Positions 46,239 through 48,756 of a DNA stretch of 64,000 bases are shown here, one piece after another. Within the stretch, counting starts at the first letter, position 1. Each line of letters opens with the position of its first letter. The stretch covers positions 4,869,303 through 4,933,302 of the forward strand of contig OZ240092.1 in NCBI GenBank assembly GCA_965197285.1, read 5' to 3'. Position numbers and translations under genes: made by a program. The notes under the pieces are model-generated. The model worked only from the letters and a program-made list of their open reading frames with translations, was not told the DNA's origin and did no database searches. Origin of the DNA: Acidobacteriota bacterium. Its GTDB lineage: Bacteria > Acidobacteriota > UBA6911 > RPQK01 > CBDAPI01.

Positions 46239-46900
46239 ACTGCGAGGGGTATCCATTGTTTCGTTTCTCGCGCGGCGAGCTGAACCCGGCAGGCGCGCGT
46301 CGGACGGCTGAGCACGTGGCCGAGTGCGACACCTGCTCTCAGCGTCTGCAGGTCATGGTGGCTCTCCAGGAGTACCATCTCGAGAACGGGCTGCGCCGGC
46401 GCCGGCGCCGGCGCTGGTGGCTGGTGGCGGCGGCTGTGCTTGCTCTGGCGGTGGTGACGGTATTCGTGCAGCAGAGCCTGCGTCAGGACGGGCCCCCGAA
46501 GCCTTCCGTGATTGCTGTCAAGATCCCCTATCCCCTGGTTCTCCTGAACAACCGTTCGGATGCGGAAACAGATCGACGATCCGCCTACCAGGCGTATCTG
46601 GCTGGGGATTACTCCCGTGCCGAGATCCTGCTTCGCAGGTCGACGCACGAGATGGATCTTCTGTTGCGGGGAGTGAGTCTTTACATGCTCGAGCGCTGGG
46701 AGGAGGCCGTGTCCGTACTGCGGGGGGTGTCACACGAAAGCGCGTGGCGTCAGCCCGCGCTCTGGTATGAGGCCAATGCGTTGATCCGGTTGGGGCAGTG
46801 GGAAGAAGCTCGCAGGATACTCCAGGCCCTGGCGGGAGAAGACGGAGAGTACACGGATCGGGCTACCGCACTCGTCGAGCAACTGGGTGAGGGCCCGTGA
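46235..46900 (+). CDS. Zinc-binding (HxxxCxxC) anti-sigma factor with TM helix and TPR-like extracytoplasmic domain
   Basis: EHVAECDTC, poly-Arg then hydrophobic helix; ATGA overlap with the sigma gene. Confidence 0.82.
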   Translation: MNCEGYPLFRFSRGELNPAGARRTAEHVAECDTCSQRLQVMVALQEYHLENGLRRRRRRRWWLVAAAVLALAVVTVFVQQSLRQDGPPKPSVIAVKIPYPLVLLNNRSDAETDRRSAYQAYLAGDYSRAEILLRRSTHEMDLLLRGVSLYMLERWEEAVSVLRGVSHESAWRQPALWYEANALIRLGQWEEARRILQALAGEDGEYTDRATALVEQLGEGP

Positions 46901-47119
46901 GGGGTCGGCTGCCGTGGCCCTTCCCGCTAGCAGTCCTCTCTGGACTCCTCCTGTCAAGGGTCCTGTTCATTTTTTCGAATTCAGCTGATCTGGGCCCTGG
47001 CGACGAAACTCGGATGCTGGGTTGAAGCCAGGAGTTTCGCTGCAGGTCCAGAATCGCTATCGGATCATCTTCTCCTCCTTGGGTCTCTGGCATGAAAGCA
47101 TCGACTTTTTGCGATTCGG

Positions 47120-47300
47120 TGTGGACTGCAGTCGTATCTCCGGCCTCTTAGTGGAGCTGTGTTCTGGCTCCGGGCCATGATGAATATTCGCGCGTGGGGC
47201 GCCTATCGTGGTGACGGCCATCGAGTGGCCAAGGCTGCTATCGGCGTGTTCCCCGCGCCGGTCTGACCGGTTCGCCATCAGTTCGAATCCTCTCATGCAG
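47120..47300 (-). ncRNA. Predicted IS1111-type seekRNA/bridge RNA
   Basis: Structured region downstream of the transposase containing TAGCAGCC, TCACCACGA and TTCATCATGG segments that match the flanks and the left end. Confidence 0.7.
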
Positions 47301-47335
47301 TTCCCAGGGAAAGATCTTGACAAATCTTTTATCGC

Positions 47336-48361
47336 TTAAGCTCGCTGGGGTTCATAGGCGGCGTCACGGGTGGAAACGGCCCAGAGTAGACGGGCCAGCT
47401 TATTGGCCACAGCCACTGCCGCTTTGTTGTGCCCCCGTCGTTTTTCAATCTCCAAACCCCACCTGTGCAAACGGTCTGGCCGCTGCTTGGACTTGGCCGT
47501 CCACAAGACCGATCGCCCACCGTGGATCAAGAGAGTGCGCAAATAGATGTCCCCTTGCTTGCTGATGCACCCGAGTCGACGCCGCAGACCGCTGGAGTGC
47601 TCCCGCGGTGTCAAGCCCAGATAACTGGCAAAGTGTCGTCCCGAATCAAAGCGCCTCAGATCTCCCACAAAACCGGCCACCGCTGTGGCTGTCAGCAATC
47701 CCACCCCGGGGATCGACTGCAGTTGTTCAATCGCAACACTCTGTCGCGATAGCGCTTTCAGTTTCCTTTCGATCCGATCGATTCGCCCCTCCAGCTCTCT
47801 GACTTCCAGACAGATCTCCTCCAGCACCGATCGGATCCCATTCGGAATCTCCACTTCTGCATCTTCGATCCATCCTCGCACCCGCTCCACGGCCTGGCAG
47901 GCTCCAACGGGAATCGTCAAACCGAATTCCCGTAGAATGCCCCGCATCGTATTGATCCGTGCCGTGCGGGTGCGCATCCATGCCGTCCGCACCCGATGTA
48001 AGGCGGTCAACTGCTGCTGCGATTCATTTTTGATCGGAACCGGTCGAATGGCACTGTTGCGGTGGGCTTCCAACAACCCTTTCACATCACTGCGATCCGT
48101 CTTGTTGCGTAACACGTACGGCCGGACGTAGGCTGGCGGCAGCAGCACAACTTCGTGCCCCAGTTCCCGGAATCGCCGGCCCCAGTAGTGAGCCGAACCG
48201 CAGGCTTCCATCAGAATCGTTGCCCGTTGTTGCTTGGCCATGAACCTCAACAACCGAGTTCGACCCAGGCGATGCGTCTTCTCCATCCGACCAGGCTGCT
48301 CGGAAATCCCAATCTCAAAGACCGACTTTGCCAAATCCACTGCGATTGTTCTATGCTTCAT
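47336..48361 (-). CDS. IS110/IS1111-family transposase
   Basis: AVDLAK, MEAC, NKTDRSD (DEDD); SIPGVG, LGLTPREHSSG, VAVANKLAR. Confidence 0.95.
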   Translation of the reverse strand: MKHRTIAVDLAKSVFEIGISEQPGRMEKTHRLGRTRLLRFMAKQQRATILMEACGSAHYWGRRFRELGHEVVLLPPAYVRPYVLRNKTDRSDVKGLLEAHRNSAIRPVPIKNESQQQLTALHRVRTAWMRTRTARINTMRGILREFGLTIPVGACQAVERVRGWIEDAEVEIPNGIRSVLEEICLEVRELEGRIDRIERKLKALSRQSVAIEQLQSIPGVGLLTATAVAGFVGDLRRFDSGRHFASYLGLTPREHSSGLRRRLGCISKQGDIYLRTLLIHGGRSVLWTAKSKQRPDRLHRWGLEIEKRRGHNKAAVAVANKLARLLWAVSTRDAAYEPQRA

Positions 48362-48501
48362 TTCAGACTCCTCCTGATACAGTTAAAAACTTTGGCTCTG
48401 GCACTTTAGATGCCGTCTAAGCCTAAAGGAGGAGTCCATCTCATCATGGTGAAAGTTGAGGAGAAGCGGTCACATAGCGACATTAGACTGGCCCCGTAGC
48501 A

Positions 48502-48756
48502 ATGGGGAAAAAGAAACGGCGACAGCAAGAAGAGATGTGGGTCGCCACCAGCCAGCTGCCCCGCACTGCCGGCCATCCCTTTTACGCAGCACTGACTCGT
48601 CTTTTGGACGAGGAGGACTTTGACGACTATGTGGAGGGACTGTGCGGGAAGTTCTATGCGGAGAAGCTGGGGCGACCGAGCCTGGCTCCGGGAGTGTACT
48701 TTCGGCTGCTGCTGCTGGTGGGCTATTTCGAAGGGATCGGATCGGAACACGGGTGA
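48502..48756 (+). pseudogene. IS5/IS1182-like transposase N-terminal fragment
   Basis: HPFYAAL...FDDYVEGLC..FY....GRPSLAPGVYFRLLL.GYFEGIGSE, then truncated. Confidence 0.8.

Follow-up and report, generated by a model that had tools for sequence, protein, structure and literature searches.

How does a mobile element find its landing site when that site lies within the end of another mobile element? This question is raised by a 64,000-nt stretch of the genome of an Acidobacteriota bacterium (GenBank assembly GCA_965197285.1, contig OZ240092.1, positions 4,869,303 to 4,933,302 of the forward strand; hereafter the window), in which an insertion sequence (IS) of the IS1111 type separates the two halves of a terminal inverted repeat that belongs to an IS1182/IS5-like IS. 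We consider it highly probable that this IS1111-type element, by means of a predicted seekRNA with two loops, targets the IS1182/IS5-like repeat and its miniature palindromes. The parts of the element were delimited as follows (window coordinates).

46937–48447, minus strand: the whole IS1111-type element, 1,511 bp in the window copy; ends set by comparison of occupied and empty sites and by the rule of 7-bp and 3-bp extensions
47336–48361, minus strand: transposase gene, 341 amino acids (aa), DEDD type; from Pfam, NCBIfam and protein similarity
46937–47335, minus strand: downstream non-coding region, 399 nt, predicted to encode the guide RNA; from its position 3′ of the transposase gene
46941–46952, strand not assigned: right-end subterminal inverted repeat, 12 bp, followed by the 3-bp extension at 46937–46939
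48428–48439, strand not assigned: left-end subterminal inverted repeat, 12 bp, followed by the 7-bp extension at 48441–48447

The transposase contains both domains of the IS110-family DEDD pair (Pfam PF01548 at 1.2e-10 and PF02371 at 4e-23) and scores 308.8 bits against the NCBIfam model NF033542, "IS110 family RNA-guided transposase", for which the cut-off is 140. Among annotated plasmid genes, the closest named transposases were those of ISPa25 (48.9% identity over residues 1–329) and IS5075 (34.3% over residues 6–337). The translated 341-aa protein has the GL-P----S(t)G motif in its C-terminal domain, and the non-coding flanks of its gene measure 399 nt downstream vs. 86 nt upstream; the passages of PMC11187229 on this group list both the motif and a long downstream non-coding region as traits of IS1111-type elements. 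By direct comparison of occupied with empty sites, insertion was found to duplicate no base, and the element ends 7 bp and 3 bp beyond its subterminal repeats. The same geometry, 7 bp outside the left and 3 bp outside the right repeat, is given for the IS1111 type where PMC11187229 treats element ends. Relative to the motif at the insertion site, the orientation was identical in all 11 copies of this genome and in 33 copies of related genomes. Eight sequence features thus support the element as an IS1111-type member of the IS110 family. An earlier note on this DNA had claimed such an element, and the domains, subterminal repeats, extensions and long downstream non-coding region bear it out. 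The range it gave, 46928..48756, contains the element at 46937–48447 and exceeds it by 9 nt of one target half, by the other half and by a relic of the host IS.

Just inside the right subterminal repeat comes a TTGAC(A) hexamer (window 46952–46957), conserved in the homologues L054, L055 and L064. In L064 this hexamer would be separated by 17 nt from a TATGAT that arises where the ends of the circle meet, in keeping with the known junction promoter of the IS1111 family; in the window element the corresponding spacing to that hexamer is only 13 nt.

What the element interrupts could be read directly from its flanks. Three features surround it in the window.

46927–46936, plus strand: outer target half, the tip of the host inverted repeat, CTAGCAGTCC; from flank and empty-site comparison
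48448–48457, plus strand: inner target half, TGGTGAAAGT, continuous with the interior of the host IS; from flank comparison
48448–48756, plus strand: IS1182/IS5-like host relic, about 300 bp, with the first 84 transposase codons; from DNA identity to full copies and tblastn

The sequences quoted by the earlier note were all confirmed at their places in the window, including the two target halves above. The genome from which the window derives (G000) is a single 5.75-Mb contig and carries 11 full copies of the element at 99–100% identity, one 796-bp internal fragment and one short left-end repeat. At the low-coordinate end (window orientation), CTAGCAGYC(C) abuts 9 of the 11 copies. The copies c5 (C1:397761) and c10 (C1:5102168) have lost the outermost 15–20 nt of the right end, with unrelated sequence beyond. 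At the opposite end, a flank resembling TGGTGRAAGT is found in all 11: TGGTGAAAGT in six, TGGTGGAAGT in three, and TGGTAGAAGT and TGGTGAAATG in one each. Extraction and comparison of the flanks of homologous copies, as the earlier note had suggested, revealed one shared motif in the G000 copies and in 33 copies of related genomes.

This motif belongs to a recognizable host. TGGTGAAAGT starts 54 nt ahead of the ATG of an 84-aa open reading frame (ORF; 48502–48756) that is the start of an IS1182/IS5-like transposase, and the relic shares 86% DNA identity over 302 nt with four full copies at other loci (tblastn, 62.5% over 88 aa). The full host element is 1.45 kb long and encodes a 452-aa transposase with DUF772 and DDE_Tnp_1 (Pfam). 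Its top NCBIfam model is that of IS1182, followed by that of IS5, and we label it IS1182/IS5-like because its scores lie below the cut-offs of both families (173.6 vs. 270 bits for NF033551, IS1182; 81.2 vs. 140 for NF033581, IS5). The DNA past TGGTGAAAGT is the start of the host element and that past TGGTGGAAGT its other end. The insertion point lies 11 bp inside the host repeat. Of the 11 copies in G000, 10 lie within IS1182/IS5-like ends. The left-end host flank occurs five times in this genome, always beside an IS1111-type copy, and the right-end flank also five times (once diverged), with four of the five occupied. With 9 of the main host family's 10 ends thus occupied, no copy of this family retains two intact repeats; in three cases its transposase gene keeps its full length. 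The sole unoccupied end (C1:~400704) reads CTAGCAGTCCGTGGTGGAAGT, that is CTAGCAGTCC-G-TGGTGGAAGT. In a related genome, an intact 1.45-kb host IS (L104/L107) has both ends empty and begins with the motif. Both the empty end and the intact element agree with the earlier note's claim that the guide targets an IS5/IS1182-like terminal repeat, and the predicted repeat does stand at the start of an intact host IS.

The flanks accompany every copy, and one could therefore take them for the true ends of a longer element that has no target specificity. This reading is refuted by the empty sites and has practically no chance of being correct: the two halves are found joined in the absence of the element once in G000 and 183 times in three relatives, and the inner half changes with the host end that it adjoins, with A beside the left end of the host IS and G beside the right end.

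Outside CTAG conservation ends sharply, in G000 as in the relatives. The four outermost bases of the motif are CTAG at most sites and NTAG...CTAN at others, of which the predicted guide reads the TA. This CTAG edge could represent the site (TA or CTAG) at which the host IS itself inserted, located outside its repeat. For one copy of the host IS, a search of three genomes for the orthologous site without it, which would decide whether CTAG is a target duplication, gave no match. At unrelated loci (G000:C1:400723 onward, C1:3433360, L025, L032, L098) a repeat starting cccggattatgcaagagatct abuts this edge of the motif and might mark where a further mobile element ends.

Folding and alignment of homologues gave the following features downstream of the transposase gene.

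47126–47258, minus strand: predicted seekRNA/bridge RNA core with two internal loops; from the fold and the homologue alignment
47231–47242, minus strand: target loop, 5′ side, containing the 8-nt segment 47240–47233, a complement of the right target half's top strand
47216–47230, minus strand: hairpin separating the sides of the target loop; from the fold, with 2 pairs of helix 4 changed on both sides
47204–47215, minus strand: target loop, 3′ side, containing the 8-nt segment 47214–47207, which repeats the left half's top strand plus 2 nt past the crossover
47177–47188, minus strand: second (donor) loop, 5′ side, with 47184–47177 complementary to the 7-bp left extension of the element; closed by helices 5 and 6
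47131–47141, minus strand: second (donor) loop, 3′ side, with 47139–47133 repeating the right-end extension and continuing into the right flank

Folding of the 211 nt that follow the gene (z = −2.68) yields an internal loop of 12 + 12 nt round a short hairpin. In silico, the segment on the 5′ side of this loop pairs with positions +3 to +10 of the target, a register shared with homologue L058, and that on the 3′ side is identical to positions −6 to +2. The RNA would therefore read a top-strand match followed by a bottom-strand match, the two overlapping at the crossover. According to the passages of PMC11187229 on target recognition, IS1111 seekRNAs have the top-strand match 5′ of the bottom-strand match, with the same overlap. 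The 133-nt core is identical in all 11 G000 copies and in 23 of 34 copies from relatives; among the differences listed for the remaining cores of these 34, none falls within the two target segments. The three strings that the earlier note had picked out of the non-coding RNA occur on the minus strand at the places it gave (47240–47233, 47214–47206 and 47184–47175). The first two, proposed there as target matches, lie within the first loop and in IS1111 order. The third is likewise present, and it is better read as a guide for the donor end than, as proposed, a match to the junction.

Are these matches more than coincidence? For this we used the non-coding regions of 16 homologues with 29–58% protein identity from several phyla, in an alignment (A1) that was not fitted to the structure. 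The same two-loop architecture aligns across all 16 over the whole core region. With the named structure laid on A1, 72.1% of cells are paired, compared with 30–47.5% when the partners are slid; 15 of 30 pairs are changed on both sides, and the covariation of 0.226 (0.122 in shuffles) was reached by none of 500 shuffles. Helices 5 and 6, which close the donor loop, are paired in 95.8% and 98.4% of cells. The longest exact matches between loops and flanks total 12–17 nt in 13 cognate pairs, as against a mean of 7 and a maximum of 13 in 144 non-cognate pairs, drawn from different target groups. The close relatives L063, L066 and L078 each have a right flank of their own and a 5′ loop that matches it. 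By eye, the donor-loop letters of L054, L063 and L064 follow the changes in their left-end extensions, and the 3′ side of this loop repeats the homologue's own right end and flank over 8 nt in L058, 10 nt in L064 and 7 nt in L063. Judged from these sequences, loops and flanks co-vary among the homologues in a fixed register. L054 itself, a 58%-identical homologue from a Gemmatimonadales record, lies in a different palindromic repeat, the other arm of which shows the empty target.

Recognition of the site by the transposase protein alone, with the RNA–flank matches arising by coincidence, is very improbable in the light of these data. It draws on the fact that the guide RNA and its binding are predicted here from sequence. 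Such coincidence is hard to reconcile with loops and flanks that change together in 13 homologues while keeping their register, and seekRNA is described as essential and reprogrammable in four IS1111-type elements in the experimental passages of PMC11187229.

Whether IS ends are sought as such or because of the sequence that they carry could be judged from relatives of the window's genome. We examined 40 further near-identical copies (89–100% protein identity) from three Acidobacteriota metagenome-assembled genome (MAG) records. In the 33 copies for which both ends were found, the joined flanks form the same motif, with the right flank exact in 26 and with one or two differences in 7. The DNA inside the target was classified for 36 copies: 6 lie in IS1182-like ends, 2 near IS1380-like genes, 12 in short palindromes and 16 in none of these, many of the last group next to housekeeping genes. 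The IS1182-like ends that were hit belong to at least four diverged lineages sharing the targeted repeat. At the 12 palindromic sites, a complementary arm 23–54 nt away yields palindromes of 36–66 bp whose arms match the IS repeat over 22–23 bp. These have the traits of miniature inverted-repeat transposable elements (MITEs): the arms are terminal repeats of a parent IS, coding capacity is absent, and dozens of copies of 36–66 bp exist. Several motif sites lack any second arm. A Pfam scan of 28 neighbouring ORFs found 4 transposases, 16 ordinary genes (an outer-membrane efflux protein, a topoisomerase, a carboxyl transferase, a kinase and others) and 8 ORFs without a family. Empty motifs with at most one mismatch number 50, 80 and 53 in the three relatives, and 0 with a reversed-pattern control. 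G000 has 13 motif sites, 1 exact and 12 with two or three mismatches.

Because the motif is abundant in the relatives and rare in G000, and the insertion sites are varied, the element follows a sequence and not IS ends as such. It inserts at the motif wherever this is present, and the objects hit depend on which of them carry the motif in a given genome. Nearly all places with the motif in G000 are IS1182-like ends, and most in the relatives are miniature repeats. The earlier note had described a hyperparasite of IS5/IS1182-like ends. This description suits G000, with 10 of 11 copies in such ends, and fails in the relatives, where only 6 of 36 copies lie there, so that specificity for IS ends does not hold. 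In its strict form, a dedicated hyperparasite whose main role or effect is to disable IS1182/IS5-like ends, other sites being accidental, we find the idea improbable. The near-saturation of the main host family in G000, in which no copy keeps both repeats, and the sharing of the targeted repeat by at least four diverged IS1182-like lineages speak for it. Against it stand the 12 insertions in miniature palindromes and 16 elsewhere, the preponderance of ordinary genes among the neighbouring ORFs (16 of 28) and the many IS ends that stay empty in related genomes.

Alternatively, the natural target may be a repetitive extragenic palindromic (REP)-like sequence, as for ISPa11 and ISPpu9, and the IS1182-like ends may be hit through chance resemblance. 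REPs are commonly targeted in the IS1111 family (PMC1525189 and PMC12288879), a third of the relatives' classified insertions lie in 36–66-bp palindromes, and the homologue L054 is likewise in a palindromic repeat. We nevertheless regard this alternative as unlikely, if a little less so than dedicated hyperparasitism. Between palindrome arms and IS repeat the match extends over 22–23 bp, beyond the 16–17 bp that the guide reads, and several sites are without a second arm. Genes for Y1 transposases (PF01797, IS200/IS605-like) number 51 in G000, 106 in G001, 39 in G002 and 2 in G003; by comparison of coordinates, none among the matches listed lies near the 13 G000 motif sites (≤3 mismatches). 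Targeting of the IS1182/IS5-like repeat, both at IS ends and in miniature palindromes, remains the reading that we prefer.

A further extension of this reading concerns the related genome G003. There, the same IS1182-like family is present in many copies that carry a one-base variant of the repeat just across the crossover (16 of 20 among the G003 matches listed). All seven of these loci that were retrieved (L093, L096, L099, L102, L105, L111 and L120) are unoccupied, and the three G003 insertions with a readable flank sit at other motif variants. Since the variant base lies where the bottom-strand guide reads and the copies seen are unoccupied, the variant could be an escape from the guide. 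The two genomes might then reflect an RNA-read arms race, in which the IS1111-type element saturates one IS1182-like family in G000 and acts as an RNA-guided brake; we offer this as speculation of low probability.

Judging by its sequence the element looks active, and each of the 11 G000 copies has a single stop within the 343 codons read from the start. The element is present in runs labelled sponge metagenome and several organisms. Two studies provide four RNA libraries with contigs that cover it, although contigs show neither strand nor RNA ends. In X17 and X18, contigs of the non-coding region were the deepest on average (5.9 and 11.8 vs. about 3 for pieces of the gene), which we take as a hint of expression only, because contig depth cannot rank gene parts and the libraries may contain DNA. 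The window copy differs from the eight other copies that keep the flank at its right junction (46936–46940), where one base of the 3-bp extension is substituted and the first flank base is absent. Because of this damage the window copy may be unable to excise, though its gene and RNA core are intact.

Other features of the copies in G000 were also noted. The 796-bp fragment (G000:C1:4061659–4062454), internal to the transposase gene and 100% identical, has unrelated surroundings. At c11 (G000:C1:3571759–3571900), a 70-bp tandem duplication consists of the last 24 bp of the element's left end and 46 bp of a diverged host-IS right end; a 2026 preprint (10.64898/2026.08.14.744561) reports tandem duplications at loci of IS110 elements. 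A host IS copy between the inverted copies c4 and c8 (G000:C1:2413830–2419216) is interrupted in turn by an insertion of about 4 kb, and c7 is situated 600 nt from a DHDPS gene.

How, then, would the element reach its target? Transcription of the downstream non-coding region would give a seekRNA (bridge RNA) that contains two internal loops. The first of these would pair with both strands of a 16–17-bp target. One side of this loop would pair with the top strand of the right half and the other with the bottom strand of the left half, reaching 2 nt past the crossover, and the second loop would pair with the two terminal extensions of the element in the excised circle. Exchange of strands by the DEDD transposase would then lead to insertion in one orientation without target duplication. 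The target lies within CTAGCAGYCC-G-TGGTGRAAGT, the terminal inverted repeat (with its CTAG edge) of an IS1182/IS5-like group in these Acidobacteriota, and as the same repeat forms the arms of the 36–66-bp miniature palindromes, the element lands wherever the repeat is present. RNA production, binding by the transposase, pairing with target and donor and strand exchange from a circle are expected here by analogy with ISEc11, ISKpn4, ISPa11 and IS621 (PMC11187229, PMC11208160 and PMC13626964). Because insertion splits its repeat, the host IS should stop moving and would remain immobile until the inserted element excises. The suggestion of the earlier note that the element may inactivate its host IS is, in this respect, a reasonable inference.

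Several observations weigh against the reading that we prefer. No Rfam family matches the candidate guide RNA: a scan of 46800–48600 at E up to 1 returned no bridge RNA or seekRNA family and only a chance match to a long non-coding RNA (lncRNA; E = 0.6). The RNA evidence consists of contigs without ends, strand or abundance that possibly contain DNA. The stems of the first loop are paired in only 53–67% of A1 cells, partly via misalignment, and RNAalifold on a MAFFT alignment gave 7 pairs, all in stems of the second loop; because of this small number, the structure was named from a single-sequence fold and the pairs were then counted on it. In L054, the bottom-strand match is split by one extra base (4 + 4 nt). 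The donor-loop matches were judged by eye and are poor in the L055–L061 group (6 of 8). The target guide has C where half of the G000 sites have T (plus strand), and a C–A mismatch at this one position is evidently tolerated. Finally, the host IS scores under the NCBIfam cut-offs for both IS1182 and IS5, and the right junction of the window's own copy is damaged.

At this locus, nature offers an RNA-guided IS whose target can be read from the predicted guide and compared with dozens of sites, both occupied and empty. It is suited to two questions, the silencing of a host IS by insertion and the number of guide mismatches that are tolerated. The finding leaves existing knowledge of the mechanism of IS1111-type elements unchanged. 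It extends their target range (Tn21 repeats, attC, REPs and the Coxiella MITE) to IS ends and miniatures in sponge-associated Acidobacteriota.

The nearest parallels are found among elements of the same type. IS4321 and IS5075 reportedly insert into terminal inverted repeats that Tn21-family transposons carry. Like them, the element described here is of the IS1111 type and enters another mobile element's terminal repeat at a single position and in a single orientation, and its transposase is 34.3% identical to that of IS5075 over the full length. There the host is a Tn3-family transposon with a 38-bp repeat, whereas here it is an IS1182/IS5-like IS with its miniatures and a repeat of about 21 bp, in a different phylum, Acidobacteriota. 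The founding member of the family, IS1111 of Coxiella burnetii, has 20 of 21 copies in a palindrome carried by QMITE2 (PMC5896051, passages on this element), so that it too targets the palindrome of a miniature inverted-repeat element, as do 12 of 36 copies in the relatives. The palindrome in Coxiella is a GTAG REP within a 150–190-bp MITE, with no known parent IS, whereas the arms here are the repeat of an identifiable full-length IS that is also hit. With ISEc11, ISKpn4 and ISPa11 (PMC11187229, sections on these elements) the element shares the downstream non-coding region, the order of matches, the overlap at the crossover, the 7-bp and 3-bp extensions and the absence of duplication. Their RNAs were shown by co-purification and reprogramming, unlike the predicted RNA here, and their targets, a linear site, attC and a REP, differ from an IS1182/IS5-like repeat. 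The bridge RNA of IS621 (PMC11208160) has a target loop and a donor loop that each read both strands, as the RNA here is predicted to do, and the donor segment that continues into the flank is reminiscent of the handshake guides and of the excision substrates bound across both loops (PMC13626964). Unlike IS621, the present element has its RNA at the other end, guides in reversed order and long subterminal repeats, and target (A|CG) and donor (A|TG) do not evidently share a core dinucleotide. In open-access papers and bioRxiv, we found no IS110/IS1111 element that targets an IS1182/IS5 end, and the precedents were those with Tn21, a MITE and REPs. Insertion of IS1111-type elements into the repeats of mobile elements is thus a known phenomenon, and what is new is the class of host, IS1182/IS5-like ends and their miniature derivatives.

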